From a virus (lineage: Duplodnaviria > Caudoviricetes): DNA of 46,993 nt. Location of the stretch: positions 1 through 46,993 of IMG/VR virus record IMGVR_UViG_3300036798_000299, one strand, 5' to 3'. Below, in pieces: positions 3,650-41,694 of the stretch (position 1 is the first letter of the stretch; each line of letters starts with the position of its first letter). The position numbers and the translations under genes are program-made. Under the pieces are notes generated by a model, which saw nothing but the letters and a program-made list of their open reading frames with translations, did no database searches and was not told the DNA's origin.

Positions 3650-4784
3650 CTCTCGGCTCTACGTAAGGTGCGAACAGCACGATCGATACCGGACCTTCGT
3701 TCGCGAGACACGTAAACGTGATGTTAATGATATCACCAGCAATCGAACCGTCGTATAGAATAGTACGAAGCAACCCATCAGTTGCTGCATCGAACGTACG
3801 CGTCTGCGTTACGGCCGTTTGATTCGTCGGCGAAACCGCCTGATACGTAACCGTAACGGTCGCGGGTCCGAGCCGCTCGTACCGCAAGAGAAGCCTTTGC
3901 AGTTGCTTCTCCATATCGGGCGCTTTGAAGTCGTACTGTCTCGCTATCGTCGCATCCTCTTCGCACTGGAGATTCGATCCATCAGCTTGCAGGAGAGCTA
4001 CAATTCCAGTCGCGTTGAAGAACCCGAGAAGCATTTCAAAGTCCGTACCGCCTATCGGAAATACCGGTGTAATCGGCTGCGTGTTGTACGTCGCTTCGAC
4101 ATTCGTTATGTATACCTGCGAAGGAACCGTAACAACGACGGCATTAACATCATCCTGGTTAGGTCTATTTGCTATAGGAATTAGCTGTAGTTGAAACGTG
4201 AACGAACCGTTAGGTGCGATAGGATTCGCGCCGCTTGTGTTTACGATGGTATAACCACTCGCAATCAGTGGTGTGATCGTTACCGTACGTGAAGAAGTGG
4301 TAGGATTAAATAACGTTATCGTGCCACTCGTGTACGCCGTTCCTGCATTAACATTTCCAAACGCTACGCAGGGAAAAACGATAGCTGATCCACCAAAGCT
4401 AGATGCGATTATAACAAATGGTTCGGTATTCAGTGCTGAGATACCTGTTAACGTTATTAGCGTTGGACCACTAACGCTATTCGAGTTTAACTGCATCGTA
4501 CAAGTTTCAGTTGTACCATCCGATAGCGACGGTGTAAACGTTACACCTATTACAATTCTCTGACTTGGTATAAGAACTGCACCATCAATGGGAATTGGAA
4601 TAGTGAAATCGCCAGGATTACCATTTGTAACCGTCAACGTAATCGCAGGCGTGTTAAAAACAAGATTCGAGTTACCTACGTTGGTTATAAAGAACGTTCT
4701 CGAAATTCCTGTACTTACAGGAAACGGCCCGAAATTGAGCGAATTCCCCTGCGCTAAAGGCGTGATCTGTATCGCCGCTGGCAT
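3627..4784 (-). CDS. Tail protein with two Ig-like (ASH/choice-of-anchor D) domains plus a nozzle-like C-terminal domain
   Basis: Start at 4784 (TAATG coupling). Two repeats of FG..V....T..I.N....(V/L)TF.P (LNFGPFPVSTGISRTFFITNVGNSNL; VAFGNVNAGTAYTSGTITLFNPT). C-terminal YDFKAPDMEKQLQRLLLRYE resembles nozzle C-termini. Confidence 0.6.
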   Translation of the reverse strand: MPAAIQITPLAQGNSLNFGPFPVSTGISRTFFITNVGNSNLVFNTPAITLTVTNGNPGDFTIPIPIDGAVLIPSQRIVIGVTFTPSLSDGTTETCTMQLNSNSVSGPTLITLTGISALNTEPFVIIASSFGGSAIVFPCVAFGNVNAGTAYTSGTITLFNPTTSSRTVTITPLIASGYTIVNTSGANPIAPNGSFTFQLQLIPIANRPNQDDVNAVVVTVPSQVYITNVEATYNTQPITPVFPIGGTDFEMLLGFFNATGIVALLQADGSNLQCEEDATIARQYDFKAPDMEKQLQRLLLRYERLGPATVTVTYQAVSPTNQTAVTQTRTFDAATDGLLRTILYDGSIAGDIINITFTCLANEGPVSIVLFAPYVEPRGEIIEGT

Positions 4785-5890
4785 TAGTTCACCGCCACGC
4801 GTTGCATATACGTGAGCCAACCCTTAGACGACGACATCTTCTGCCACGTTCCCTCGACTAGATCGTGGACCCACATGATGTTAGGTCCAGGAATCGATAT
4901 CCAATAGGCTTCAAGGTCGTACCCACGACCCATAGACGCACTACCAAAACACTGTACGACGTCGTTTGCAACAAGTGCAAGGTCGGCAGCAAGCTGCTTG
5001 CGGATCTTACCACTGGCGAGACGATTAAAGTTGCTTCCATCGAACGAGAGTACCTCCGAACTTTCTGTAATGCAAAGCATCATCGGGCCCCATGTCACGA
5101 GCGAGTACGGATAATAGTTGCCCCATCCTGGCCTCGACCACATAAACGGCTCGAAGGCGAACGCGGCGACGGCGTTTCCCGTCGGGAACATGACCGTCGA
5201 GCCTTCTTGACGTAGGATATACGTATTGCGTCCGATAGTACCGCAACCCGTTAAGGCTCCACCACTTTCGATTAAATCGGTCGCACCCGCCGTATTGTCG
5301 AAAGCATTTATCCACTCGCTGGGGTTTCCCGTATCACTCCAACGTACGCGGAAGGGCCAGTTCATCGAACCTGCGATACCCGGCGACGGTTCCGTCCAAT
5401 TAACGCCGATAAGCGATTCGCTGTTCTCCGTCAGATACAAACATGATCCCGGAACGTCCCCTGCGATATGGACGCTAGCCGATCCATCAATGTAACTAAG
5501 CGGGATCGACCCATTCGCGAAGTACACTTGCTGATTGATCTCACGTAGCGCGAAAGGAAGTCCCGTAACTGATAGCGATGGTATACCACTAGGTAGCGTG
5601 AGAACATGGTAACTAATGACACCTCCTGTGCTCGTAATGTAGTACGCATGCGCGGCCGTAAGTATTATCGTGTGATAATTGTCGAGTACGTCTTGAAACG
5701 TGTATATCGCTCGTATCGGCTGACCATCGGGAGGAGGTGTCACGACATTAAAGCGCGGACGCGTCTGTAATCTTCCCTTGCGGCAAAAGAAGTTCGTACA
5801 GACGTCAAGCGCCTGATCATCCATAGCCGATGGTAAGTCGGTTACGATGCCCTTCCACGGACCTGCGATTGGATACCTTTGTACTGTCAT
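4784..5890 (-). CDS. Tail nozzle / DNA stabilization protein (P22 gp10 / tail tubular B-like beta-propeller)
   Basis: Start at 5890 (TAATG). Motifs NFFCRKGRLQTRP, VYFANG and RVRWSDTGNPSEW are typical of podovirus nozzle proteins. Confidence 0.75.
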   Translation of the reverse strand: MTVQRYPIAGPWKGIVTDLPSAMDDQALDVCTNFFCRKGRLQTRPRFNVVTPPPDGQPIRAIYTFQDVLDNYHTIILTAAHAYYITSTGGVISYHVLTLPSGIPSLSVTGLPFALREINQQVYFANGSIPLSYIDGSASVHIAGDVPGSCLYLTENSESLIGVNWTEPSPGIAGSMNWPFRVRWSDTGNPSEWINAFDNTAGATDLIESGGALTGCGTIGRNTYILRQEGSTVMFPTGNAVAAFAFEPFMWSRPGWGNYYPYSLVTWGPMMLCITESSEVLSFDGSNFNRLASGKIRKQLAADLALVANDVVQCFGSASMGRGYDLEAYWISIPGPNIMWVHDLVEGTWQKMSSSKGWLTYMQRVAVN

Positions 5891-6633
5891 TACCTCGCCG
5901 TATAGTTTGATTTGAATTTCGGTTGCATACCCCAATCCATGTAGGGCTTCTGAGCCTGAAGACGATTCCCAAGCCTATCCGTGATCCCCGCGATCTTCGC
6001 GCCTGTGTTAGGGTCCGTATAGCCGTACAGAAGTTTCGTAACCTCGTTCGCCTTATCGCGTTCGAGTAGTTCGATATGACCTCTCATCGCCGCGTCGTAA
6101 TCGAGCACTTCAAGCCAATCATCGGGAATTTGTAGCTGCGTCGCAAGAAGATCATCGCCGATAATAACGGGCTTCATCCAACAGTCCATATAGAAGACGT
6201 ACGGCCCATTCGCATCCGGAACAGGCCGAAAGATGATCGTATTCGCCCATGGACAGACGATCGCGGGAACGCCTGTAAACGGTTGGTTAGGTGGTACGTA
6301 CTGCGATGCATACCGCCGAATGTAATTGATATCCTTCCAGTCGACGATTATTGGCGCGCCCGTCGCTTGATTCTTTCCCACAAGCGACTTGATCGCACGA
6401 ACTGTGTCGGGATACGAGTATGTATCCGCGTTCGCCGTCGTCGTGATCTGGATCGTTTGTTCCGCCTGCTCGAAGGTATGTGCATATGCAACCGAAATAT
6501 ACGAGTCACGTAACCACCCCGCGATGCGAGTGTAGGGAAAGCCCGAGCCCGGCGCAGGCTGCAACAGATCCTGCCGGTTCCCGAGCTTCATCGCGACATT
6601 TGTAACACGATCTCCCAACGTTGCGAGTGCCAT
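5890..6633 (-). CDS. Head-tail adaptor / tail tubular protein A-like
   Basis: 247 aa with motifs TTTANADTYSYP, GVP..., IFRPVPD and IPDDWLEVL; directly upstream of the nozzle gene. Confidence 0.7.
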   Translation of the reverse strand: MALATLGDRVTNVAMKLGNRQDLLQPAPGSGFPYTRIAGWLRDSYISVAYAHTFEQAEQTIQITTTANADTYSYPDTVRAIKSLVGKNQATGAPIIVDWKDINYIRRYASQYVPPNQPFTGVPAIVCPWANTIIFRPVPDANGPYVFYMDCWMKPVIIGDDLLATQLQIPDDWLEVLDYDAAMRGHIELLERDKANEVTKLLYGYTDPNTGAKIAGITDRLGNRLQAQKPYMDWGMQPKFKSNYTAR

Positions 6634-6878
6634 TAGAACTCCACGATTTCGCCTGGATCTTTGAACATCTCACTAGCTTCGCTCGTGCCTTCGCCAGGCT
6701 GGGATAGTACTATCTGAATTTCCTTGTCGCGCCACATAATCGAAAGATCATCCGTACAAGGCGTTTGCGTACAGACAAGGAGGCCCTGTTGTCGTCTCAA
6801 GGTATTGATCGGTCGAAGAAAGCCACAACGATCGCAATTCCGCCATTGGACACCGAATATCCCTTTCGCTTTAGGCAT
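6633..6878 (-). CDS. Small Cys-rich (CDRCG...VC...C) phage protein
   Basis: 81 aa, WRNCDRCGF...GLLVCTQTPC; translationally coupled to the adaptor gene. Confidence 0.7.
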   Translation of the reverse strand: MPKAKGIFGVQWRNCDRCGFLRPINTLRRQQGLLVCTQTPCTDDLSIMWRDKEIQIVLSQPGEGTSEASEMFKDPGEIVEF

Positions 6879-6885
6879 ACAGCAC

Positions 6886-7629
6886 CTACCAGTAGAGGAC
6901 CTGCATTTGTTTCGCGTACGAATTCATCGTACCGGATGCGTTCGCACCGTTCGTCTGATAGTTGTTGATGAGAACGCCCGGCGTCCAGTTTTGTCTAGAA
7001 GCCGAAGGACCTTTGCAGGAGGGATCGAAAAGCGTGTAAACGTCGTCGATTTCGACACCCTCATAGGTAACGACACCCGTATCATCTCGCGACGTCTTCA
7101 AACGCAAGTGCTTCCACGTGTTCGCAGGCCAGTCCTTGCGATTAACTTTCATCGTCGTATGGGTCCAGTGAGTACCGCCACCTGATACCGTTGTATAGTC
7201 CCAGCAACCATTGACAAAATTCACCTGCAAACAGAGGAAACAATTTCGACCATCCGACATCATCTGGTTCATGTCGAGTTCGAGCTGACCCATCTGTCCC
7301 CAATCGTCGGATTTAACGGTAAGATCATAGACGAAGTTCGTTGGTGTCGGATCTTCCGCGAATGGATTACTCCAACGCATCCCGGCTTTACCCGTCTGGA
7401 CCGCGTTGAACTGTCGACCTTCCGTCGTCGAGATAAACTTGTTGAACGTCGAAGATACCGAGCCAGGCGTACCTGCGTCCTTCTCCGCCTTCCATTTCGG
7501 TGCGTTATCGAGGATACCTGACGTTTTCGCGTTCGGGGGTATGACGAGACCAGAACCAGGTGTGGATACGGGCGTTACCGTATACGTTTTACCGTCATAC
7601 GGCCAGATGATCGTGTTGTTCGTGCTCAT
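6886..7629 (-). CDS. Concanavalin-like/beta-jelly-roll carbohydrate-binding or lyase-like protein
   Basis: AGGAG RBS before the ATG at 7629 (MSTNNT). Motifs NFVYDLTV..LELDMNQ..WDYTT..HW..NTWKHL..RD..G.VTY..V.ID resemble a family I associate with Acidobacteria. Confidence 0.55.
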   Translation of the reverse strand: MSTNNTIIWPYDGKTYTVTPVSTPGSGLVIPPNAKTSGILDNAPKWKAEKDAGTPGSVSSTFNKFISTTEGRQFNAVQTGKAGMRWSNPFAEDPTPTNFVYDLTVKSDDWGQMGQLELDMNQMMSDGRNCFLCLQVNFVNGCWDYTTVSGGGTHWTHTTMKVNRKDWPANTWKHLRLKTSRDDTGVVTYEGVEIDDVYTLFDPSCKGPSASRQNWTPGVLINNYQTNGANASGTMNSYAKQMQVLYW

Positions 7630-7637
7630 GGGGCTCC

Positions 7638-8120
7638 TTATTGTAACCGCGTAATAGTTATGTACTGACTGACGACTGGGGTTCCTGTTGCGCCTGTATA
7701 GTTGGCGAAGTAAGTTACACCGCTTACTCCATCTAAATGTACAATGGTACTTGCTTGAGTAACCAAACCAGCGGTTGTCATATTCGTAGTCGGACTCGCC
7801 GTCGCACCAGAAGTAGCACCGGTACCACCTGGTTTCCAGTTCCAACCGCACTGCATTGTGCCAGCGGTTCCTGCTGTTACGACGAAATCGGTGCAGGCAA
7901 GTTCATACGTTCCTGCTGCCGTCGACGTATATACTGTTGTGGGCGAAACCGGAGCCGTTTGGTTGAGAAACGATCCATTGAAAACTACGCAAGGAAGGCT
8001 CGCGCAACGAACAGGAGCACCGCTTCCAGTTACGGTTTGATTCGCGACTCCGTTAATCGACTGTGGCTGAACCGTGAAGCATAATAGTAGGAGGCTTATT
8101 AACAGAAATGTGTTTTTCAT
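7638..8120 (-). CDS. Secreted C1q/BclA-like beta-sandwich paralogue 3
   Basis: AGGAGG RBS; signal peptide MKNTFLLISLLLLCFTVQP; 160 aa; paralogous to the next two genes. Confidence 0.75.
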   Translation of the reverse strand: MKNTFLLISLLLLCFTVQPQSINGVANQTVTGSGAPVRCASLPCVVFNGSFLNQTAPVSPTTVYTSTAAGTYELACTDFVVTAGTAGTMQCGWNWKPGGTGATSGATASPTTNMTTAGLVTQASTIVHLDGVSGVTYFANYTGATGTPVVSQYITITRLQ

Positions 8121-8130
8121 AAACTTCCTC

Positions 8131-8613
8131 CTATAATAGGCGTTCAACTACAATGTCTAAACCATATATCGGTGTACCTGTAGCACCGGTATAATTGGTA
8201 AAGAGAACAAACGGATTTATCCCATCAGCATACACTATAAGGGAAACTTGAGTAGTGTTACCTTGGGTTGTCATATTCGTTGTAGGACTAGAAAGCGAAC
8301 TCTGCGCGTTTCCAGTAACTCCACTGTGCCAGTTAAATCCACACTGCATCGTCCCAGCTGTACCCGCGGTGGTGATATACATCGAACACATAAGTTTATA
8401 AACACCTGTAGCTGTAGGAGTATAAGTAGTTAAGTTATTAATAGCCGCAGACTGTCCAGTCAATGCATTCTTATATACGATACAAGGAAGGTTCGTACAA
8501 TTTGCGGGTAGTCCACTCCCAGTTACGTTTTGACTCGGAACGTTATTGATCGATTGCGGCTGTACGGTAAAGCATAACAATAGAAGACTCACTACTAGAA
8601 TCACGTTCTTCAC
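8131..8613 (-). CDS. Secreted C1q/BclA-like beta-sandwich paralogue 2
   Basis: AGGAGG RBS, GTG start; signal peptide MKNVILVVSLLLLCFTVQP; shared QSIN.V..Q.VT, C....LPC and TAGTM.CG..W motifs. Confidence 0.75.
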   Translation of the reverse strand: MKNVILVVSLLLLCFTVQPQSINNVPSQNVTGSGLPANCTNLPCIVYKNALTGQSAAINNLTTYTPTATGVYKLMCSMYITTAGTAGTMQCGFNWHSGVTGNAQSSLSSPTTNMTTQGNTTQVSLIVYADGINPFVLFTNYTGATGTPIYGLDIVVERLL

Positions 8614-8622
8614 AGCTTCCTC

Positions 8623-9117
8623 CTATTGTGTACGCGTGATTACAATATCTAGTTCATATACAGGCGAACCTGTAACACCAGTAAGAGTCGTAAAAACCCC
8701 AATTGGATCAACTCCACCTGCGTGTGCTGCGACAGATATTTGAGAAACGGCTGCGACTGCAGTCATATTTGGACTGTTACCAAGCACACTAAATGACAGT
8801 CCCCCAGTTACTGGTTTCCAGGTAGTTCCGCACACCATTGTACCAGCCGTAGCTGCGGTAACAACATACATAGTACAAGCTATCAAGTAAGTACCTGGTC
8901 CTGTAGGAGTATACACACTAACAGTGCCGGTTCCGGTCGTCAAACCTGGCTGTTGACTCGCAAAAACGACGCAAGGGAGCTGTGCACAGGTCGACGGTAC
9001 ACCTGATACGCCTGATACGGTAACGTTCTGGTTCGACACGCCGTTGATCGACTGGGGCTGCATCGTAAACGATAGCAACAGGAGGCATAACAAAGCAACG
9101 ACGTTACGGCGCAACAT
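8623..9117 (-). CDS. Secreted C1q/BclA-like beta-sandwich paralogue 1
   Basis: Signal peptide MLRRNVVALLCLLLLSFTMQP; same conserved motifs as paralogues 2 and 3. Confidence 0.75.
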   Translation of the reverse strand: MLRRNVVALLCLLLLSFTMQPQSINGVSNQNVTVSGVSGVPSTCAQLPCVVFASQQPGLTTGTGTVSVYTPTGPGTYLIACTMYVVTAATAGTMVCGTTWKPVTGGLSFSVLGNSPNMTAVAAVSQISVAAHAGGVDPIGVFTTLTGVTGSPVYELDIVITRTQ

Positions 9118-10159
9118 TGAGCACCCCCGTGTTTTCGGCTACTAACGTAGTGCCGGAGAAGCTATCGAACGCCTGTTGACTACACGTACTTGCCGTCGCT
9201 CCAATCGTCATTCCACCATGAATAGCTGCCGGCCACGTCCATGTCCACGGACCACCTGCGCCAGGCTGACATATCTGGATTATTACGCGTTCTCCTTTGT
9301 AAATCGTAGGAGCAGACGCTGTCGTATTCGCGCTTAGAGTATACGTTTGCAGTACATCAGTTGTGAGATTAACGGTTGCCCCAGGCGAAAAAGTTACAGG
9401 TGAATATGAAACCGCGCCTTTTACGAAAACTGTATGATCACCAATAGAGAAGCCAGGAGCGAATACCGCAGCGTTGGTCCCACCTCCCGTAGTTGCACCG
9501 ATGCCAAGTTGTAATTCTAAAGTATTGGCAGGAGTTAACATAGGACCTCCGCTGCCGCCGTTTTCAGCGAGTCCTGTACCGATCACGTAACCTGTCATTA
9601 CACCATCGAATACCTCCATCGCCGCTCCGAGGGCTGATCCCCCTGTAATGCCTGAAAGCTGCGATAGCGGGTATCTACTATTGATCGAATCCGAGAAAGT
9701 AAGGCAAGGGCCACTGGTACACAAAAATATCTTAGTCGAGTTTAAGTTGAGACCGAAGGTTGGATCGGAATTGATCGTACTACCATCGTGAAAAGTGATT
9801 CCTACATCATCAGTGGTGAATGCGAGACTATGAAGTACAAGATCCGGATTTACGACCACCGTCGTAGCCCCAGACGTGCCACCGACGGTTATCGTACCGT
9901 TCGGGCTCGTGATCGTACCAGTACCACCACCAGGAGGACATCCTGTAGGTACCCACTGGTGACTCGTGGTATTGTAACAGAGGATACCAACAAGCGATGG
10001 CGTATAGGTCGGTGGATACGCAGCTGTGGTAGATGTCGTTGTAACGTTCGTCCAGTTTACACCATCAGACGAATTCATTAAACCTACAAGCGAAGGCGTC
10101 GACTGTGCTTTTACCATCACAGCAAAGGCCAACATGCCGAGTATTACAAGTCTTTTCAT
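9104..10159 (-). CDS. Tail-fibre-like protein with Sec signal peptide
   Basis: Start MKRLVILGMLAFAVMVKA|Q at 10159. G/T-rich shaft; C-terminal TYTLSANTT...GERVIIQICQPGAGGPWTWTWP resembles a common fibre tip domain. Confidence 0.65.
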   Translation of the reverse strand: MKRLVILGMLAFAVMVKAQSTPSLVGLMNSSDGVNWTNVTTTSTTAAYPPTYTPSLVGILCYNTTSHQWVPTGCPPGGGTGTITSPNGTITVGGTSGATTVVVNPDLVLHSLAFTTDDVGITFHDGSTINSDPTFGLNLNSTKIFLCTSGPCLTFSDSINSRYPLSQLSGITGGSALGAAMEVFDGVMTGYVIGTGLAENGGSGGPMLTPANTLELQLGIGATTGGGTNAAVFAPGFSIGDHTVFVKGAVSYSPVTFSPGATVNLTTDVLQTYTLSANTTASAPTIYKGERVIIQICQPGAGGPWTWTWPAAIHGGMTIGATASTCSQQAFDSFSGTTLVAENTGVLNVAP

Positions 10160-10170
10160 TACGCGCCTCG

Positions 10171-11595
10171 TTATAGGTGCACTCCAATGCACGTGATAGT
10201 ACCGATAGAAGCGGCCTGTCCGCTACCCTTACTAACTGTTATCGCGTCGACGCTAGTAGTCGTTTGATTTTGAGTTCCCATAAGAGCGACTGAGTTAGGT
10301 TCCGAAGATGAACCACCTACATAAGGCGGGAGTCCGTTACATGCCACTGTATAGGTCGTGTTCGCGAATGCTGCGTTCCACGTTACCGTCGTAGTGCAGG
10401 TATTACCGGTTCCAACCGTCGTCGAGCAACCTGCCGCGGAACCTGTACGAATGATAGTAGGTCTTACCGCTCCGTCAGTAAGACCACCATTTGCGTCCCA
10501 TATGGCGACGTTACCGTTCGTTCCTGAGGCATTCGTCGTAGCGAATTTCGTATCGGTTCCTGCGACGCTTAACGTCATCGCGAGTGTGCCACCAGTAGTG
10601 ACTGGCGAACCTGCGACGGAAATTAACGTCGTGTTCGACGACGAAAGGCCTACCGACGTAACGCTACCGTTACCACTACACGCACTTCCAGTTACGAGAC
10701 AAACCGCGCCTGTACCGCTAGCCCCGTTCGAGAGGTCAGACGCACCCATAACGTGCCCTTGAACGAAGTAGTTAAACGCTTCGACATTCGAATTAAACGA
10801 TGCTGACGTACCAATAAGCGGACCTGTAAGTGTACCGCCGACGAGAGGCAAGTACGCTCCACCTATCGAGTTGACTTGGTTGACCGTCGCAGCGTCGTTA
10901 CCAGTTCCCCCGCCGGGAAGGACGATCTGTCCCGTGAACGTACAACCTGTGAGCGGACAAAAAGGTCCACCAGGAAGTGTGTTCGTGAAACTCAGCGCTC
11001 CGTTCGTGGCGAGCAAGAACCCGTTCGCGCTTGGTAGGAACGTAATCGTATGCGTGTAGATGTTCGCATAGTACGCCTGCGAGTTGCCAAACGTAAAGAC
11101 ACCGTTTGTCGAGGGAATGACGTTCCCCTGAATGACCGGTGCCGTGATCATCGAGTACTGCGGAATAATCGAAACGATAGGACAGAAAACCGGATTGTTA
11201 ATATTGTACGGTCCTGGTGTCGCGATACATTCCTGCGCGACCTGATTCGTGTTCTGGTTGTTCGGGTTGAACGTAACGTTATACGTCGTATTCGCAGGTG
11301 AGATAAGATCATTTCCCCAAACGACGCAAGGACCGCTATTGAGTACGTTCTGCAGCGTACCGTCGGGCTTAATGTTGCACGTCACTGACTGAGGCGCGAC
11401 AGTCGTTAAACCTGGTATAGTGTAGTGTATCGACGACGACTGTGGTTGGATATCAAATACAACGGTACCACTCGTGGCTGGGTTCCCTCCCGCGTCACTG
11501 ATGGTACCGTTAATTGGTACAGGCGACTGTCCCGAACTAGCCGTCGCTAAAGCCAATACGACGAGTACGAGCGGTATGTACTTTCGAATATTCAT
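10171..11595 (-). CDS. Tail fibre protein with Sec signal peptide
   Basis: MNIRKYIPLVLVVLALATASSG|Q. Fibre motifs YLPLVGGTLTGPL, GSVTSVGLS, VAGSPVTTGGTL; C-terminal TVTWNAAFANTTYTV. Confidence 0.75.
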   Translation of the reverse strand: MNIRKYIPLVLVVLALATASSGQSPVPINGTISDAGGNPATSGTVVFDIQPQSSSIHYTIPGLTTVAPQSVTCNIKPDGTLQNVLNSGPCVVWGNDLISPANTTYNVTFNPNNQNTNQVAQECIATPGPYNINNPVFCPIVSIIPQYSMITAPVIQGNVIPSTNGVFTFGNSQAYYANIYTHTITFLPSANGFLLATNGALSFTNTLPGGPFCPLTGCTFTGQIVLPGGGTGNDAATVNQVNSIGGAYLPLVGGTLTGPLIGTSASFNSNVEAFNYFVQGHVMGASDLSNGASGTGAVCLVTGSACSGNGSVTSVGLSSSNTTLISVAGSPVTTGGTLAMTLSVAGTDTKFATTNASGTNGNVAIWDANGGLTDGAVRPTIIRTGSAAGCSTTVGTGNTCTTTVTWNAAFANTTYTVACNGLPPYVGGSSSEPNSVALMGTQNQTTTSVDAITVSKGSGQAASIGTITCIGVHL

Positions 11596-11604
11596 GCGCG
11601 CGCC

Positions 11605-11883
11605 TCAGTCGAAATAGACAAGTAGAAAGCCGTCGGTATGAACAACCTCCTGGAGACCCTGCACCCAACCAACAGTACCAGACCTTTGATTTTCGCCTGT
11701 CGAGTTACCCGTACAGGACCATAGGAGATCTCCAAGTTGGTTTGCGATCGTTACAACTGAAGCTGTTCCGTTCGCATATTCGACGAATTCGAAATGCTTA
11801 ACCTTTATTTGGGTCTTCAGTAGGACGACGCTCAACGACGAACCGTCGAGCACCATAGGGTTCTGCGCTAGCAAGTTCGCCAT
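11605..11883 (-). CDS. Small virion protein
   Basis: GGAG RBS before the ATG at 11883; 92 aa, beta-rich; lies between head and fibre genes. Confidence 0.6.
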   Translation of the reverse strand: MANLLAQNPMVLDGSSLSVVLLKTQIKVKHFEFVEYANGTASVVTIANQLGDLLWSCTGNSTGENQRSGTVGWVQGLQEVVHTDGFLLVYFD

Positions 11884-12638: not shown

Positions 12639-13529
12639 CTACTGACCCGGTGAGCCGCTGAGTCCGTGCCAGTAAGTAACGCCGGCAACGAACCGGAAGA
12701 ACGTCGAGAACGACGAGCCCTTCGTGTTGAAGTCGTCCTGGCTGTCGAACTCAGGCTGTGTACGCCAGAAATACTTCAACGTGTGACTGCTCTTGCGTGA
12801 AGCAACCCAGAAGGCGGTCGGAGACACGAGATAGTGATCGGTTAAAGGGTTCAGACGTCCTTGTACCGAGTTAACCTCGTTCGTACCGCTGTAGGGCTTG
12901 TACGCGCTGTGGAGGATCTCCTGTGCCTTGAACTGGAGATCGACGGGAATGATGGTATCTTCGGGCATCGCTCTCTTGATGAGACCGCGCTCGTTGACCA
13001 TCTTTTCGAAGATCAACAGCTGCTCCTGAATACCGCTGACGCTAAACGCCATGTTCGTAGCGCTTGCGTTCGAGTAACTGCCGCCACCAAGAAGAGGGTG
13101 AGTACCAATCAATATGCCGCCATCGATCGACTTCTGCGTCGTGAAACTATTGACGAGAATGCCGATCGCGCCGGTTTCGATTGTTTGACGGATGGAACCA
13201 GCGAAATCCTGCGAGACCTTCCGCATGATTCCATACTGGTCGTCATCCCACATCTCACGCGTGACCTGGAAACCCATACCGTAAGATACGGGCTGATAAC
13301 GAACGGTACCGCCTTGAATGGCGTTATCGTAAGCGATCGGCGTACCTTCAGGCTTAGGTGGAACTGCTCCAAGTCCTGCGACAAGCTGATCTTCCTCGTA
13401 TGCCTTTGTCGTGGGGTATACGTTGAAGAACTGCTGATACTCCTCAGGATGCATCTCCAGATCTTCGTAGATAACCGAAAATAGACCTGGTGCGAGGAGC
13501 TGACTAAACTGCCCACGTGTCGCGGCCAT
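12639..13529 (-). CDS. Major capsid protein (HK97 fold, Mu gpT-like family)
   Basis: LLAPGL...KAYEED...G.G..P.K.EG..I.YD...YGMGFQVTREMWDDDQYG...HPL; 296 aa. Confidence 0.9.
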   Translation of the reverse strand: MAATRGQFSQLLAPGLFSVIYEDLEMHPEEYQQFFNVYPTTKAYEEDQLVAGLGAVPPKPEGTPIAYDNAIQGGTVRYQPVSYGMGFQVTREMWDDDQYGIMRKVSQDFAGSIRQTIETGAIGILVNSFTTQKSIDGGILIGTHPLLGGGSYSNASATNMAFSVSGIQEQLLIFEKMVNERGLIKRAMPEDTIIPVDLQFKAQEILHSAYKPYSGTNEVNSVQGRLNPLTDHYLVSPTAFWVASRKSSHTLKYFWRTQPEFDSQDDFNTKGSSFSTFFRFVAGVTYWHGLSGSPGQ

Positions 13530-28291: not shown

Positions 28292-29020
28292 ATGAACCGT
28301 AGAACGTTGTTAACCCAAAGCGGTATAACCCTTGCAGGTGGATTATTACTTCCACATCTACTAAAAGCGCAGTTTCCAGTAACAACTGGTTATCCTGCGT
28401 TAAATACTACAATCGTTAACTCAGCGCAGTCTAACGTGCTTGCTCTCTATCGTGCATCCGAAGCACACACTGCAAGCGCGGCTACTATACAAGCGGCTGC
28501 TACATCTTTCAGTACCTTGTTCTCACACTTCGCCGCAACTGGTTACAATCCAGTGTATCAACGAAACATAATCAGCGGTATACAAAGCCGCCTTGCTTCA
28601 GGAATTAACGATGGTCCACGAATAGCAGCACGTTTGGCATCTGTGGGAATCTTCTTAACTGCGGCGCAGATAGCAAACAACTACAACGTCGCAGAATATC
28701 GCCCAACCATGAACCAACTTATCGCTGTATTAAATGCTGACACCATTACTTATATTTGGTCGAAATTTAATCTTGACCTACATGAAGCTGTATTACGTGC
28801 TGAATCAACAAATAACCACACAATCAGTGGCGATTCTATGCCACGTACAAGCTTGCGTACTATTACTATAGAGCCTCCTCACCTACAACTTGAGCCTGGA
28901 TGTGGTCTTGATGGCTTAGTTGTAAGTGTTCTTGCTATTTTTTCTCCTCCACCAATTGATATTATGATGGGAGCATTGGGATTAACATACGGAGTTTTGG
29001 ACTACTTCAAACTTTGTTAG
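28292..29020 (+). CDS. Tat-signal precursor with hydrophobic Cys-flanked C-terminal peptide (bacteriocin-like)
   Basis: MNRRTLL...LKA|Q twin-arginine signal; C-terminus GCGLDGLVVSVLAIFSPPPIDIMMGALGLTYGVLDYFKLC; AT-richer codon usage. Confidence 0.6.
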   Translation: MNRRTLLTQSGITLAGGLLLPHLLKAQFPVTTGYPALNTTIVNSAQSNVLALYRASEAHTASAATIQAAATSFSTLFSHFAATGYNPVYQRNIISGIQSRLASGINDGPRIAARLASVGIFLTAAQIANNYNVAEYRPTMNQLIAVLNADTITYIWSKFNLDLHEAVLRAESTNNHTISGDSMPRTSLRTITIEPPHLQLEPGCGLDGLVVSVLAIFSPPPIDIMMGALGLTYGVLDYFKLC

Positions 29021-29028
29021 GAGGAGTT

Positions 29029-29211
29029 ATGATTCATAATCATCGAGCAGCAGATGTAGCATTTATCTTCGCAGATATCGTAATAATCATATCTGCCGTG
29101 CGATATTTTCTGTATCGTCGCCGCAACACAACCGATCCGTATCGAGTGAAGTTAGAAATTGGAGCTGGTATGTTGTTGCTCATTTCTGCAATTTTGTTCA
29201 TAACACAGTAA
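29029..29211 (+). CDS. Small two-TM membrane protein (immunity-like)
   Basis: AGGAGG RBS; two hydrophobic segments separated by RRRN. Confidence 0.65.
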   Translation: MIHNHRAADVAFIFADIVIIISAVRYFLYRRRNTTDPYRVKLEIGAGMLLLISAILFITQ

Positions 29212-29469: not shown

Positions 29470-30581
29470 TCATCAACTGGTCACGAATCAGTCAATTCCA
29501 GGAATGTCGGCGTAAAGCCTACAACTGGGATGCACTTCGTCTCTCGTCGTGGCGTGAGGCCGACGCGCTCTTAACAGGCGGAGGCTTTCACGTCGGAGCA
29601 GCAGTCCTCTTCGCGACGAAGGACGTACAAAAAGCCGTCGCGGCTGCAGAAAAAGACATGCGCGATAGGTACGCAACGCAAGTCATCCTAGCCGAAGAAA
29701 AACCAATCATCGAACATGGCATTGAATGGACGAAGCGAGCAGTTGCTAAGTTCGCTGAACATTACGAGGGTCAGGACGTTCAAGTTCTTTGGCCTGAAGT
29801 TGCGTTCTGCCTTGCCATGCCTAATACATGGCACCATTGCCATTTCGCGCATAAGCTATTGTATCCGCCCCCGGCCCCGCCGCGTGAAGAAACCCCAGCT
29901 TTAACCCAGATCGAGATCGGCCGCCCAATACCACACTGTTTCGACTGGGTCGTTACGCCTGATGGACAAGCAAGCCATCTTGGGTGCCCGTGGTTCAATC
30001 GAAACGAATACAAAATATGCCCGAGTTGCGGTGTCGATGTGCCTGCCTGCATTATGCCGCACTTCTTCAAAGGCAAAACCGATGCCGTCGTCGAATGGAT
30101 GACGAAAGTGTGGCTGTTCGAGCACAAGACCAACGCGCAAGCGCCGGAAATCTTCTATAAAAGGTACCTGTTAGATGCACAAGCGACCGGCTATATGTAC
30201 GGTATTTGGAAGACGCTCGGAGTTAAGCCCGAAGGGTTCATTCTCAACGTTATACAGAAGCCTTACAAAAACGCAAAGGATCAGCTTGCGGTCGGGTTCG
30301 GACGTGAGCCTTACTTCCGCTCAAATGAAGATCTTGAAAGGTTCGCTCTGGAACTTGTTGAACAAGCAAACGACTATGAACGTGCATTTTCGGCAGCGGA
30401 CGGGGGTAATATTCACGCCGTCTACATGAACACGAAAAGCTGTACGAACTACAATCGGCAGTGCTACTATATGGACTACTGTCAGAGGATGTTCGTCGCT
30501 AACGAAGGCGAGTTCCACGAACGCGAGGAAGACTACGTCGAAGCGGAGTACAAAAAGGTACTACAACTGGAGACCGCATGA
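29466..30581 (+). CDS. Cas4-like PD-(D/E)XK exonuclease
   Basis: SRISQFQECRRK, G..FH, KGKTD...FEHKT, Q...Y and a C-terminal C..YNRQC.Y..YC Fe-S motif. Confidence 0.85.
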   Translation: MIINWSRISQFQECRRKAYNWDALRLSSWREADALLTGGGFHVGAAVLFATKDVQKAVAAAEKDMRDRYATQVILAEEKPIIEHGIEWTKRAVAKFAEHYEGQDVQVLWPEVAFCLAMPNTWHHCHFAHKLLYPPPAPPREETPALTQIEIGRPIPHCFDWVVTPDGQASHLGCPWFNRNEYKICPSCGVDVPACIMPHFFKGKTDAVVEWMTKVWLFEHKTNAQAPEIFYKRYLLDAQATGYMYGIWKTLGVKPEGFILNVIQKPYKNAKDQLAVGFGREPYFRSNEDLERFALELVEQANDYERAFSAADGGNIHAVYMNTKSCTNYNRQCYYMDYCQRMFVANEGEFHEREEDYVEAEYKKVLQLETA

Positions 30582-31249
30582 ATAAACCTATAGCAGTTGC
30601 GATCTATTCGGGAGGCATGGACAGCTGTACGCTTGTCTATGATCTCGCACGGACGTACGAAGTCCACACGCTTTCGTTCGATTACGGTCAGCGGCATCGA
30701 AAGGAGCTCGACTATGCGCGGGCTGTTGCGAGGGATCTTGGGATTTTTCACAAGACTATCTCGCTCTTACAACTGCGCGATCTACTCGGAAGATCGTCGC
30801 TTACTGACGTTACGATTGACGTACCCGAAGGTCATTATACGGATGAGACGATGAAAGCGACGATCGTCCCTAACCGAAACGCGATAATGCTCTCGATCGC
30901 GTACGGCTTCGCGGTTTCAATCGGCGCGAAACTCGTCGCGATAGCTGCACACGCTGGCGATCACCCGATCTATCCCGACTGCCGACAGGGCTTCATCGAA
31001 ATGCTTAGCGTGACGCTTTCGACCGGCAACGACAGCGACATTTACATCCACGCGCCTTACACCAACAGAACGAAGGCGGATATCGCGCGTCTCGGGAACG
31101 AACTAGGCGTACCTTGGAACCACACTTGGTCGTGTTATAAAGGTTTGTCGCTCCACTGCGGGCGTTGTGGTACCTGTGTCGAACGCCGCGAGGCTTTCGC
31201 GCTCGCCGGAATCAACGATCCAACCGAATATGGAGGAATCCTCTCATGA
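30578..31249 (+). CDS. queC: 7-cyano-7-deazaguanine synthase
   Basis: SGGMDS, FDYGQRH, VPNRNAIMLS, YPDCR, WSCYKG...HCGRCGTCVER. Confidence 0.95.
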   Translation: MNKPIAVAIYSGGMDSCTLVYDLARTYEVHTLSFDYGQRHRKELDYARAVARDLGIFHKTISLLQLRDLLGRSSLTDVTIDVPEGHYTDETMKATIVPNRNAIMLSIAYGFAVSIGAKLVAIAAHAGDHPIYPDCRQGFIEMLSVTLSTGNDSDIYIHAPYTNRTKADIARLGNELGVPWNHTWSCYKGLSLHCGRCGTCVERREAFALAGINDPTEYGGILS

Positions 31250-31398
31250 ACGCCACGTTTATCCTGTATATTCTCGCCGCGATATGTTTCTTCGTCGCCG
31301 CGATCAACGTCACCTGGCCACGTGTGAACCTCATCGCTTTAGGTCTTTTGTTCTGGGTTCTCGCGTACATCATCGGTGGGCCTCATGTCGTCAGGTAA
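31246..31398 (+). CDS. Small two-TM membrane protein (50 aa)
   Basis: GGAGG RBS; MNATFILYILAAICFFVAAINV..PRVNLIALGLLFWVLAYII. Confidence 0.7.
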   Translation: MNATFILYILAAICFFVAAINVTWPRVNLIALGLLFWVLAYIIGGPHVVR

Positions 31399-33003: not shown

Positions 33004-33099
33004 ATGTGGGCGCCCATATTCATCGTAATCTGGGCGCTCCTCGTTATTTCGATTGAAACGCGTCGGATTAACAAGGAGCGCGATCGTGTTCGTAAGTAA
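33004..33099 (+). CDS. 31-aa membrane peptide
   Basis: GGGAG RBS; MWAPIFIVIWALLVISIETRRINKERDRVRK*. Confidence 0.45.
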   Translation: MWAPIFIVIWALLVISIETRRINKERDRVRK

Positions 33100-33637
33100 A
33101 CGTTTTACCTTCGAGGCGTCGCACCAAATCGCGAATCATCCGGGAAAGTGCCGGCGCCTTCATGGTCACTCTTGGGTTCTTACCGTCACGTGCCAAGGTA
33201 AACTCGACGCGGAAACGAAGATGGTCAAGGACTTCTACGATATAAAGCTCGCCGTTCAACCGATCGTCGATCGACTCGATCATCAGCATCTTGGTTACGG
33301 TCCTATTTTTTCCGACCCTTGGAACGCAATTATGCCTTCGTCAGTCAAAGGAATACCAGAAGGCTTCCTCCCAACATCCGAAAACATGCTCGTCTGGATC
33401 GCGAGCGAAATTCCTCGAGAGCTACCTTGGTGCAAGCTAGAACTCAACGAAACTTGCACCTCATCCGCCGTACTAGAGCGCTGGGAACATACGCGCTACT
33501 TCGTGAAGGAAGGAGGCAACCATGGCAGGCAAGAAGAAGGAGATGAAGAAGGACGACAAGAAGGAAAAGAAGTTCCCGCCCAAGGCAAAGAAGAAGTAAC
33601 GTCGCCATATATCACCGACGACGATATTCCCTTCTAG
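33086..33637 (+). CDS. queD: 6-carboxy-5,6,7,8-tetrahydropterin synthase with acidic DDDIPF tail
   Basis: FEASH...CRRLHGHSW, DF, LDH..L, PTSEN, ET; GTG start after AAGGAG. Confidence 0.92.
   Translation: MFVSKRFTFEASHQIANHPGKCRRLHGHSWVLTVTCQGKLDAETKMVKDFYDIKLAVQPIVDRLDHQHLGYGPIFSDPWNAIMPSSVKGIPEGFLPTSENMLVWIASEIPRELPWCKLELNETCTSSAVLERWEHTRYFVKEGGNHGRQEEGDEEGRQEGKEVPAQGKEEVTSPYITDDDIPF
33522..33599 (+). CDS. 25-aa Lys-rich peptide overprinted on the queD 3' end
   Basis: AAGGAGG-caacc-ATG; MAGKKKEMKKDDKKEKKFPPKAKKK*. Confidence 0.5.
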   Translation: MAGKKKEMKKDDKKEKKFPPKAKKK

Positions 33638-35180: not shown

Positions 35181-35505
35181 CGACGCAGGTTTTCGTTTCG
35201 ACCTCATCTGCCCAACGGGACTAAAGCGTCTCGCAGCACGTTACGATCTGGGTTCACGTACGTACGGCGACGACAACTGGCCGAAAGGAATGCCAATTTC
35301 GAGCATCCTCAATCACATCGAAATGCATCTCAACCACTATAAACTAAACGGCGATACCGCAGCAGACGACGACCTTGCAGCAATCGCATGGGGTGTCTTC
35401 GCACTCATGCACTTCGAATCCGTCTGCGACTGTCATGAATGTCGCGCTATATTCGCCTATACCGACAAGCAATACCTGGAGGCTCAACGACGTGAACCAC
35501 AGTAA
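35092..35505 (+). CDS. dATP/dGTP diphosphohydrolase (DUF5664-like)
   Basis: F.SGAVR....RFDLI...L.RLA..Y..G...YGD.NW.KG.P......H..D.LAA.AW; start uncertain. Confidence 0.8.
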   Translation: MPLAKSNTGSTLTSDESTKAFVSGAVRSNDDAGFRFDLICPTGLKRLAARYDLGSRTYGDDNWPKGMPISSILNHIEMHLNHYKLNGDTAADDDLAAIAWGVFALMHFESVCDCHECRAIFAYTDKQYLEAQRREPQ

Positions 35506-36031
35506 AATCGAAGCGGGTGTGCGTCTTATCCTCGCCGGACTCGACTGCGACACAAAGGATCGTAACTATGCGGAAACTCCCGAACGGGTTGCTCGCTGTT
35601 ATGAAGAGATGTTTTCCCCTAAAGAAACGGAGTATGCTACCTTCGTGGAAAGCTACAGCGACTTTATCCTACTCCGCGGACACGAAGTGTTCTCTATCTG
35701 CCCCCATCATTTGTTACCAGTTCGTATGGACGTCTCTGTGGCCTACATTCCAAACGGAACCGTACTGGGACTCTCTAAGCTGGCTCGTGTGCTTCATGAC
35801 TGCAACACCGGACCGTTACTGCAAGAGGCGTTCACTAGGAATGTTGTCGAGCGTCTACAGTCGATCACTCCGACCGCTAAAGGGATCGCATGTGTGGTAC
35901 TTGCAAGGCACGATTGCATGCAGATACGGGGCATTCGAACTCATGGTGACATCACAACGTACAATCTCGCAGGCGAGTTCTTGAACGTTCCTCATATCCA
36001 ATCGCGCTTTTTCGAGCTTGCGAGACGCTAA
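35492..36031 (+). CDS. folE: GTP cyclohydrolase I
   Basis: ETPERVAR, FSICPHHLLP, GLSKLAR, LQE, H.CM..RG; GGAGG RBS before the GTG. Confidence 0.93.
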   Translation: MNHSKIEAGVRLILAGLDCDTKDRNYAETPERVARCYEEMFSPKETEYATFVESYSDFILLRGHEVFSICPHHLLPVRMDVSVAYIPNGTVLGLSKLARVLHDCNTGPLLQEAFTRNVVERLQSITPTAKGIACVVLARHDCMQIRGIRTHGDITTYNLAGEFLNVPHIQSRFFELARR

Positions 36032-36032
36032 C

Positions 36033-41093: not shown

Positions 41094-41371
41094 TCGAGTA
41101 TAAAGTCGGAACGGTAATACAACGCGAAGGTCGTTCGTGGCTAATCCATCGCATCGTCGATAGTAAGTCCTTCTTCGAAGACACCCACTCGAAGGAATGT
41201 TACGTTATCGACGAACTCTATCTCGAACTCCGCTGTGCGGACGAAATATCGTTCCTCGCACTTCGTGAGCACAAAGAGGTCGTAGCCAAAGATCCTGCAG
41301 TTATCGAGGCGAAGCTACGCGGCCCCGATACACTCGAATGGCGTAAAGCCGGAAAGGTGAAAGACCTATGA
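41090..41371 (+). CDS. Hypothetical protein
   Basis: GGAG RBS, ATGA coupling. Confidence 0.6.
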   Translation: MIEYKVGTVIQREGRSWLIHRIVDSKSFFEDTHSKECYVIDELYLELRCADEISFLALREHKEVVAKDPAVIEAKLRGPDTLEWRKAGKVKDL

Positions 41372-41694
41372 GCATCTCACGTCCCCTCGGTGCGCGTGTT
41401 ATCGTCGATGATATCGTTACGACGCTGTCCGTCGAAGAGCGTGCGCGTAGGATTCAAGCGCCAGGCTGTCCGCCGATGGAGGCAATCGTTTCCGACAACG
41501 AACGACCTAAGGCAACGCAGGGACGTGTCCTCGCCGTCGGAAGCGACCCATTCGTACAGGAGCAGATCGATGTCGGAGATATCGTGTCTTTTAGTTATCT
41601 GGATGGTACTTTTGTGTATATTGACGGCATGCGTTATCGTTCACTTGAGTTCCAGCAAATTGTCATGGTTACGAAGGAGGAAAGAACAGTATGA
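41368..41694 (+). CDS. groES: GroES-like co-chaperonin
   Basis: RPLGARVIV...QGRVLAVG......VGDIV.F....G....IDG..Y......IV. Confidence 0.85.
   Translation: MSISRPLGARVIVDDIVTTLSVEERARRIQAPGCPPMEAIVSDNERPKATQGRVLAVGSDPFVQEQIDVGDIVSFSYLDGTFVYIDGMRYRSLEFQQIVMVTKEERTV

Follow-up and report, generated by a model that had tools for sequence, protein, structure and literature searches.

Why would a tailed phage put signal peptides on its fibres? Textbook tailed-phage morphogenesis is wholly cytoplasmic. The absence of a signal peptide has even been used as an argument for the phage origin of a gene (PMC6199706, in the portion of its text available to us). The question is raised by IMG/VR virus record IMGVR_UViG_3300036798_000299, which is from an uncultured short-tailed soil phage (46,993 bp, 98% complete according to CheckV); we refer to this whole stretch of DNA as the window. 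Its minus strand carries, between positions 11595 and 7638, five consecutive genes (ORF1 to ORF5) that each begin with a Sec-type leader and that encode paired cysteines. From comparison with relatives, we consider it well supported that the five proteins are exported and form disulfides in the periplasm. We also lean, if only by a little, toward a further step: that this exported and disulfide-bonded fibre set joins a cytoplasm-built particle only at lysis.

The leader and a cysteine pair come and go together

ORF1 (474 aa; 10171..11595, minus strand, as are all five genes and their parts) is predicted to begin with a Sec signal peptide at residues 1-22 (11530..11595), MNIRKYIPLVLVVLALATASSG followed by Gln, and there is a GAGG upstream of its ATG at 11595. 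The leader is followed by a transthyretin-like N-terminal domain (the N-domain), a fibre shaft, and a Cys-rich C-terminal domain, and the protein has 12 cysteines. The N-domain, a predicted beta-sandwich of mature residues 1 to about 123 (11161..11529), accounts for four of these, as the pairs C73-C90 and C123-C138.

To look across the family, we searched a leader-free profile of the N-domain against 1.84 billion representatives. At E <= 1e-3 this matched 546 proteins; 150 of them were listed, and the counts below refer to these 150. We classed them by the sequence that precedes profile position 1, as it stands in the database protein sequences rather than from start codons at the DNA level: 110 are leader-bearing, 22 are leaderless (Met plus 0-3 residues before the domain), and 18 are unclear (fragments, internal copies, or ambiguous cases). 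Every one of the 110 leader-bearing proteins has the C73-C90 pair, and 35 have C123-C138 as well. Of the four cysteines, 20 of the 22 leaderless proteins have none; of the other two, one has C138 alone and P0183 has the C73-C90 pair. If we set the leader against the C73-C90 pair, then the table is 110 to 0 against 1 to 21 (Fisher p 2e-23, a raw value that ignores kinship). Gln immediately follows the leader in 96 of the 110 leader-bearing proteins, as it does in ORF1 and ORF2.

We then considered kinship, with trees that were built without the cysteine columns. The leaderless state requires 7 changes on the FastTree tree or 8 on the IQ-TREE tree, at least three of which are forced by well-supported branches, and the label for the cysteine pair requires 6-7 changes on the same trees. 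The approximately unbiased test rejected a single leaderless clade (delta lnL 135, p 0.0086). An independent-pairs test had just 2-3 supported pairs and gave no significance; where the cysteine state differed within a pair, the direction was always as for the leader.

Because the leader and a disulfide-type cysteine pair are gained or lost in step, it appears that the leader decides the folding compartment. The sequence-only reading had proposed export and folding in an oxidising compartment, and the covariation across the 132 classified representatives (110/110 against 1/22), with at least three well-supported transitions, argues strongly for both. The leaderless relatives are, as judged from their sequences, the cytoplasmic version of the same part.

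The closest relatives and the phage genomes give the same picture at a finer scale. Eight relatives of ORF1 (P0002-P0009) keep the leader, as does the related locus L002, and of 16 IMG/VR loci (given L numbers here), 14 have a leader, 13 of these with Gln at +1. Within this set, L010 and L018 have lost C123 and C138 as a pair, and L021 and L023 have neither the leader nor the N-domain cysteines. P0010 and P0011 begin with MATKTT or MATQTT at the place where the others begin after the leader, and they lack all four N-domain cysteines. The leaderless start, M-(A/P)-T-K-T-T-V-T, coincides with the predicted mature start of the leader-bearing forms, Q-T-K-T-T-V-T. This suggests that a free N-terminus at exactly that position matters, as it does for the fibres of phage SU10.

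ORF1 and ORF2 lie in a fibre slot

The late operon of the window runs along the minus strand in the order small and large terminase, SU10-type portal, scaffold-like genes, major capsid protein, two small genes, the five leader genes, a 247-aa gene, an 81-aa gene, SU10-type adaptor, and nozzle-like protein, with more tail- or ejection-type genes 3' of the nozzle-like gene. The sequence-only reading had placed the two long genes in the fibre slot, and the relatives agree: in L002, L009, L011, L012, L016, and L018, as in the window, the position is between the major capsid protein and the adaptor. The conserved order is terS-terL-portal-...-MCP-g11944-g11605-[fibre gene(s)]-81-aa gene-adaptor-nozzle, where MCP is the major capsid protein, and the core virion proteins are 31-75% identical.

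The slot in relatives always contains at least one large variable protein headed by the N-domain or by a similar leader. Its leader-bearing fibre genes encode 487-1243 aa in L009, L011, L012, L013, L016, and L018 (the L013 locus ends inside the fibre gene). The leaderless locus L021 has two N-domain genes in the slot, one of which is an 824-aa pectate-lyase-like spike. In L023, the leaderless N-domain gene is two genes after a weak match to the SU10 adaptor family (SU10_adaptor), which is the order of SU10, adaptor and then fibre. So the N-domain is conserved while the distal parts vary, from fibre to pectate-lyase-like. The window has one copy of the N-domain and three small paralogues (ORF3 to ORF5), and we did not find a leaderless duplicate of either in this genome. 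Judged by eye, the leader-bearing P0132, another member of the family, resembles a glycosidase that contains repeated domains.

The fold of the N-domain also points toward the particle. With a deeper alignment, AlphaFold2 modelled the mature N-domain as a transthyretin-like beta-sandwich, with a predicted local distance difference test score (pLDDT) of 91-98 over residues 1-120. The top match of this model by VIA-align is residues 1-103 of the tail fibre of cyanophage A-1(L) (Z 9.6, root-mean-square deviation 2.4 A over 92 residues). The next matches are again in the first ~90-100 residues of their chains: the tail tips of Bxb1 (Z 7.5) and Ur-lambda (Z 7.2) and the neck of XM1 (Z 7.0). The head-binding domain of the P22 tailspike scores Z 5.6-5.7. 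Among the predicted viral structures in BFVD, there are 12 matches at E <= 1e-3, and those that have names are mostly minor tail or tail fibre proteins. Given this model, the N-domain of ORF1 is likely to be a particle-docking domain. The identification of ORF1 and ORF2 as fibre or receptor-binding parts is supported by the slot, by the leaderless pectate-lyase-like spikes, by SGNH relatives, and by the N-domain fold.

A proposed pathway through the periplasm

How could exported fibres end up on a particle that is built in the cytoplasm? In the reading that we favour, the five genes would provide two fibre proteins and three small jelly-roll-like proteins, each with a Sec-type leader. Sec would export them, signal peptidase I would remove the leader (with Gln as the first mature residue in ORF1 and ORF2 at least), and disulfides would form in the periplasm. 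Cleavage would expose the N-terminus QSPV... at the head of the transthyretin-like domain, and this domain would serve as a plug by which the fibre docks at the adaptor/nozzle region. The adaptor (5890..6633) is a cytoplasmic particle part and the likely dock for ORF1. Heads and tails would be built in the cytoplasm without the five proteins. Holin lesions would then breach the inner membrane while the outer membrane still holds or just as it gives way, and the particles would meet and bind oxidised fibres that are concentrated in the periplasm. As for the three small proteins, they would be carbohydrate-binding tips or accessory adhesins of the appendage set. The gain would likely be fibres that are stabilised by disulfides, and perhaps capped by pyroglutamate, for harsh soil.

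We infer that attachment to the particle happens during or after the breach of the envelope. In T4 and P22, fibres or tailspikes are added late and separately to finished particles, and P22 heads without tailspikes will bind added tailspike in vitro, so the attachment step is physically plausible.

The main rival, which we regard as possible but unlikely, is that the five proteins are exported but never become part of the virion. They might be decoys that destroy or mask receptors, they might aid release from the polysaccharide of the host, or they might be surface fibres like the mosaic adhesive trimeric (MAT) fibres of Bdellovibrio. This explanation shares the well-supported export. Also, ORF1 and ORF2 have relatives with SGNH-esterase, pectate-lyase-like, or beta-helix-like parts that could work as free enzymes; the N-domain is found inside large leader-bearing enzymes as well; and the particle location of the five proteins is here a prediction. 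On the other hand, a leaderless copy that the virion could use is absent from the genome, which weakens the decoy idea, and we recognised no other fibre or spike in it. The leaderless homologues occupy the same structural slot beside the adaptor and nozzle genes, their start is the predicted mature N-terminus, and the best structural matches of the N-domain are the particle-proximal ends of solved fibres. Finally, the five genes follow one another within 8-14 nt in the late operon, and promoter-like sites (10 in the block versus 7.5+-2.7 in shuffles) and terminator-like sites (6 versus 6.7+-2.2) are no commoner there than in shuffled sequence.

Several points count against assembly at lysis, and we list them together. 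First, assembly after lysis must compete with dilution at the burst, and this timing is the weak point of the proposal; both the presence of the five proteins in virions and their cleavage are predictions, not observations. Second, the Bdellovibrio MAT fibres share the layout of ORF1 and sit on the cell surface (PMC10769870, as far as its available text goes). Third, the same N-domain occurs near residue 1250 of the leader-bearing proteins P0132 (1497 aa) and P0125 (1781 aa), so the domain is not confined to the N-terminal plug of fibres. Fourth, transthyretin-like folds are widespread: the Z for carboxypeptidase D is 7.2, and other cellular domains are in the same range. No PDB entry matched the N-domain model at E <= 1e-3 in a Foldseek search, and the AlphaFold2 model of the whole of ORF1, from 11 sequences, reached a pLDDT of only 34. 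Fifth, P0183 is leaderless yet keeps the C73-C90 pair, and 18 of the 150 listed representatives are unclassed. Sixth, the cleavage site in ORF3 to ORF5 is uncertain, as these fit the -3/-1 rule poorly. Seventh, no spanin was recognised in the window, and there was no clear lipoprotein either.

The five genes and their products

The five frames between 11595 and 7638 are genuine open frames on the minus strand, with N-termini as the sequence-only reading had described them. ORF2 has 351 aa from an ATG at 10159 (9104..10159), with the leader MKRLVILGMLAFAVMVKA followed by Gln, six cysteines, a fibre-like middle, and at its C-terminal end a conserved domain of some 95 aa; the GTG at 10192 that had been listed as its start is probably not the start. 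The remaining three are small paralogues with a leader and four conserved cysteines each. ORF3 (164 aa; 8623..9117) overlaps the end of ORF2 by 14 nt at its start. ORF4 (160 aa; 8131..8613) has AGGAGG before a GTG at 8613. ORF5 (160 aa; 7638..8120) also has AGGAGG before its start, which is the ATG at 8120 and not the TTG at 8147. Apart from the 14-nt overlap, the genes are separated by gaps of 8-11 nt. There are Shine-Dalgarno-like motifs before the leader-including starts of ORF1, ORF2, ORF4, and ORF5, which is why we chose the ATG codons at 10159 and 8120, and in none of the five did we find a Shine-Dalgarno-preceded start after the leader.

To measure the leader, we took the highest Kyte-Doolittle score of any 10-residue window within the first 50 residues (H10), which is our own heuristic rather than SignalP. 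All five proteins have the basic and hydrophobic N-terminus that had been claimed for them: there is a K or R in the first 5 residues, then a strongly hydrophobic stretch, and H10 is 2.84-3.55, versus at most 2.19 in the 23 other minus-strand ORFs that we compared. A cruder scan of 67 non-overlapping ORFs of the window gave 6 that resemble signal peptides, including four of the five; ORF5 was missing because the gene picker had dropped it for a spurious overlapping ORF. We judged the other two to be false, as one is a 77-aa ORF (H 2.42) and the other starts inside a 506-aa ORF, 170 codons in.

Cleavage before Gln had been proposed for every leader. This fits the -3/-1 rule in ORF1 (SSG↓Q) and ORF2 (VKA↓Q), but in ORF3 to ORF5 (FT[VM]QP↓QS) there would be Pro, or Val/Met, at -1, and the sole site that fits the rule is C/S-F-T↓V/M. 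We also considered whether the cysteine in the leaders of ORF3 to ORF5 could be that of a lipoprotein, and we rejected this: its position shifts between paralogues (residue 11 versus 14) and it is not preceded by a lipobox. At codon 19, just past the hydrophobic core (..FT-M-QPQS), ORF3 and its orthologues carry an ATG in frame, where ORF4 and ORF5 have Val without a start codon.

The description of the cysteines held up. The mature proteins ORF1 to ORF5 have 12, 6, 4, 4, and 4 cysteines, all of them even numbers and together 2.48% of residues, versus 0.64% in 22 other minus-strand proteins, a four-fold enrichment (Fisher p 8e-8). A fibre repeat rewritten with cysteines is also there, as both FCPLTGCTFTG and YLPLVGGTLTG are present in ORF1. 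In a relative that is 89% identical, the second copy of the repeat is also C-x4-C (YCLLTGCTLTG), with both cysteines arising together. We did not see a convincing enrichment of N-x-S/T sequons (8 in ORF1 versus 9.5 expected; p 0.02-0.05, uncorrected, in ORF2, ORF4, and ORF5), so we set aside periplasmic N-glycosylation.

That all five are fibre-type genes was too broad a claim, as ORF1 and ORF2 carry fibre motifs but ORF3 to ORF5 are paralogues of another, jelly-roll-like kind. These three are 46-51% identical to each other with four invariant cysteines, and their family is narrow (13 proteins); two distant relatives, P0023 and P0024, have no leader. Beyond the leader, we rejected homology to ORF1 or ORF2 (hhalign probability 0.8% and 7.5%). 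The Atlas model of ORF4 (predicted TM-score 0.70) resembles jelly rolls of the CBM_4_9 type (TM 0.53-0.57), which we offer as a lead only. None of ORF1 to ORF5 had a match in the PHROGs and Pfam scans, ORF1 had none by tblastn against 50,697 phage records, and profiles of the ORF1 N-domain, of ORF2, and of the small paralogues found no solved structure at E <= 0.001.

Other phage types and the likely host

The C-terminal module of ORF2 (9107..9397; ICQP..GGPWTWTWP..HGGMTIG..TCS) is about 95 aa with two cysteines, and it is shared with other leader-bearing proteins: SGNH esterases, beta-helix-like proteins, and fibre proteins, in other phages and on contigs of metagenome-assembled genomes (MAGs) from Acidobacteriota. 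A search with the module led us to two unrelated phage types. L046, which has a P22-like portal, encodes a leader-bearing SGNH esterase of 1124 aa that ends in the module (L046:4926-8297), between the portal and capsid genes. L047, which has a contractile tail with an E217-type baseplate hub and DUF2612, encodes four consecutive leader-bearing proteins of 346-975 aa (L047:5119-13460); their genes start right behind the baseplate genes, and a cell-wall hydrolase comes next. In both phages, the leader-bearing genes are in the fibre slot. The four leaders of L047, three called by rule and one read by eye, end in A↓Q or G↓Q. We would call it an even bet that building a virion in two compartments has recurred in at least three lineages (with SU10-like portal, P22-like portal, or contractile tail), tied to the lineage of the host and gained or lost several times along with the cysteines.

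Which host would this be? In the genome contigs of 185,579 species, the ORF2 module occurs only on five Acidobacteriota MAG contigs (four from Ca. Acidiferrales and one from Terracidiphilus). Also, the nearest Atlas cluster to ORF4 is labelled bacterial, most commonly Acidobacteriota. The N-domain itself is in just 1 of 401 sampled Acidobacteriota genomes, as a weak match; such rarity is expected for a lytic phage family, and it means that our host call rests on the ORF2 C-terminal domain and the Atlas neighbours of ORF4. The host is probably a diderm from Acidobacteriota (Terriglobia), although these data do not make this firm. Our first guess from the Gln at +1 was Bacteroidota, and we dropped it in view of the Acidobacteriota contigs, the Atlas cluster, and the use of Shine-Dalgarno-like motifs.

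The Gln may still be informative. In 300 kb of an Acidiferrales MAG (L026-L040), 9 of 36 heuristically called signal peptides have Gln at +1, versus a background of 4% Gln, so the phage leaders look like those of the likely host. Glu_cyclase_2 (PF05096) is found in 2 of 5 Acidobacteriota MAGs and also in 3 of 14 control genomes. There may be a habit outside the Bacteroidota that is like the Q-rule, by which Gln follows the leader.

Less probable explanations

We think it improbable that the hydrophobic N-termini are something other than export signals, with folding and assembly in the cytoplasm and cysteines that either bind metal or become oxidised only once released. Disulfides do form without export in some phage and thermophile proteins, and export is predicted here from sequence, with an atypical cleavage site in ORF3 to ORF5. 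But this idea is hard to reconcile with a cysteine pair that is present in 110 of 110 leader-bearing proteins and in 1 of 22 leaderless proteins, across several independent transitions. Furthermore, 96 of the 110 have Gln after a c-region that ends in A or G, a pattern that is frequent in signal peptides of the Acidobacteriota MAG (9/36), and this points to real signal-peptidase sites.

Very improbable, in our view, is a moron-like insertion of surface-protein genes from the host, as with lom and bor of lambda, with no relation to virion structure. The lom gene of lambda does encode an exported protein among tail genes, and the cluster nearest to ORF4 in the Atlas is bacterial, most commonly Acidobacteriota. 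Against this, the slot and the N-domain are kept across relatives with 31-75% identity in core virion proteins, and the N-domain is in only 1 of 401 sampled Acidobacteriota genomes. The block is too tightly packed to hold promoters or terminators of its own, sites of these kinds are not in excess, and its GC content is unremarkable.

That each gene has two products, an exported full form and an internally started cytoplasmic form that builds the virion, is hardly credible: ORF3 and its orthologues could start at codon 19 (MQPQS...), just past the hydrophobic core, but the Val codons there in ORF4 and ORF5 are not start codons, ORF1 has only a TTG inside its leader and no Shine-Dalgarno-like motif for it, the later ATG and GTG codons of ORF2 lack such motifs too, and the cysteine pairs would still require an oxidising compartment.

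Other genes in the window

Upstream, the fibre slot is bounded by the major capsid protein (12639..13529, minus; PF25209, E 2.9e-14). Between them, the small conserved gene g11605 (92 aa from an ATG at 11883; 11605..11883, minus) has no leader, and in relatives it is immediately upstream of the leader-bearing fibre gene. Directly after ORF5 is a 247-aa protein (6886..7629, minus) that starts with MSTNNT and has no leader; it matched no family, and otherwise we found it only in the close relative L002. Next is an 81-aa protein with four cysteines (6633..6878, minus) that precedes the adaptor in relatives; it is kept immediately upstream of the adaptor in L009, L011, L012, and L018 (30-52% identity). 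The SU10-type adaptor (5890..6633, minus) was identified from PF24175 (E 3.2e-8) and synteny, and the nozzle-like virion structural protein (4784..5890, minus) from phrog_3287 (E 2e-10) and synteny.

Replication genes are on the plus strand, among them a PolA-UDG fusion and a QueC/QueD/FolE set, and no integrase family was found among the window proteins that we scanned. Genes for QueC, QueD/PTPS, and GTP cyclohydrolase I adjoin that for a DNA polymerase A with an N-terminal domain of the uracil-DNA-glycosylase family (30578-31249, 33053-33637, 35375-36031, and 36018-38519, plus). The set suggests that the phage DNA carries a 7-deazaguanine modification. A gene for a Cpn10 (GroES)-like co-chaperonin is at 41368-41694 (plus; PF00166, E 2.9e-6).

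As for lysis genes, a search of the window for spanins and holins gave two small ORFs with two transmembrane segments each (29014-29211 and 31165-31398). The fibre slots of some relatives also hold small membrane-type genes: a lipoprotein-like protein of 119 aa (..LAGC) in L009 (L009:8629-8985), a C-terminally anchored one of 129 aa in L016 (L016:5449-5835), and an N-terminally anchored one of 126 aa in L018 (L018:12777-13154). These may be spanin- or holin-like lysis genes that sit beside the exported fibres.

Implications

If our favoured pathway is correct, then the last step of assembly would be tied to the lysis programme, and host range would depend on the Sec, signal-peptidase, and disulfide machinery of the host. 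The fibres could be disulfide-bonded and have a blocked N-terminus, as would suit them to harsh soils. It would also follow that annotation pipelines that discard proteins with signal peptides as non-structural miss the receptor-binding proteins of whole groups of phages. The coupling of leader and cysteines is a clean natural experiment on how a domain adapts to a changed folding compartment. And the family makes the question testable, as homologous leader-bearing and leaderless fibres coexist in it.

Comparison with known systems

Exported phage proteins with Sec signals are well known: Lom and Bor of lambda, Llp of T5, o-spanins, Sec or SAR (signal-anchor-release) endolysins, and g3p and g8p of filamentous phages. 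Filamentous phages assemble their virion proteins from the membrane or periplasm side, and they are extruded, not tailed. To our knowledge, the exported proteins of tailed phages in that list are not parts of the virion, and none in the list is a tail fibre. Moron-type proteins such as Lom and Bor have their own transcription unit at a variable position, which does not describe the block here.

In the open full-text literature (subscription journals lie outside it), we found no paper that describes signal peptides on the fibres of tailed phages. The available portions of PMC5723332, of PMC6199706, and of a 2026 bioRxiv preprint on huge phages do not describe them either.

ORF1 resembles the fibres and tailspikes of podophages (gp12 of SU10, gp9 of P22, and that of A-1(L)), in that these have a gene in the structural module, a conserved N-domain, a variable shaft, and ends that are enzymatic or binding. 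The long tail fibre of SU10 docks on the adaptor by its N-terminus, according to the part of PMC9509320 that is available. Unlike ORF1 to ORF5, where the whole set has Sec-type leaders and paired cysteines, the fibres of SU10, P22, and A-1(L) are leaderless cytoplasmic proteins. Also, the fibre genes of SU10 come after the adaptor (gp11 is the adaptor, gp12 and gp13 the fibre; PMC9509320, same portion), while here they come before it.

The leaderless members of the N-domain family (P0010, P0011, which is the spike of L021, and the protein of L023) are also close to ORF1: the domain is homologous (E 1e-25 to 1e-67), it is at the extreme N-terminus, the slot is the same, and the bodies are pectate-lyase-like. 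They differ in that they start at the domain, with M-A/P-T-K-T-T-V, and in that 21 of the 22 leaderless proteins listed lack C73-C90.

The Q-rule substrates of Bacteroidota (PMC5837995 and PMC10653852, from the sections at hand) resemble these proteins in having Gln immediately after the leader, as in ORF1, ORF2, and 96 of the 110 leader-bearing relatives listed. With Gln at that position, the phage leaders are in that sense adapted to the export machinery of the host. Prophages of P. gingivalis contain five functionally uncharacterised genes with Q-rule signal peptides, which are not described as fibres in the accessible text of PMC10367356. Unlike in these systems, the host signal here points to Acidobacteriota rather than Bacteroidota, and Shine-Dalgarno-like motifs are used.

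The remaining comparison is with a bacterium. The MAT fibres of Bdellovibrio bacteriovorus have a signal peptide, a beta-rich conserved N-domain of about 130 aa, a phage-like trimeric fibre, and swappable tips (PMC10769870, available portion). They resemble ORF1 in having a leader, then a conserved N-domain, then a fibre, and in being exposed outside the cytoplasm; we liken the two by layout alone. As far as the same text describes them, the bacterium itself encodes MAT fibres and carries them on its surface, whereas the genes considered here are in the virion operon of a lytic phage.

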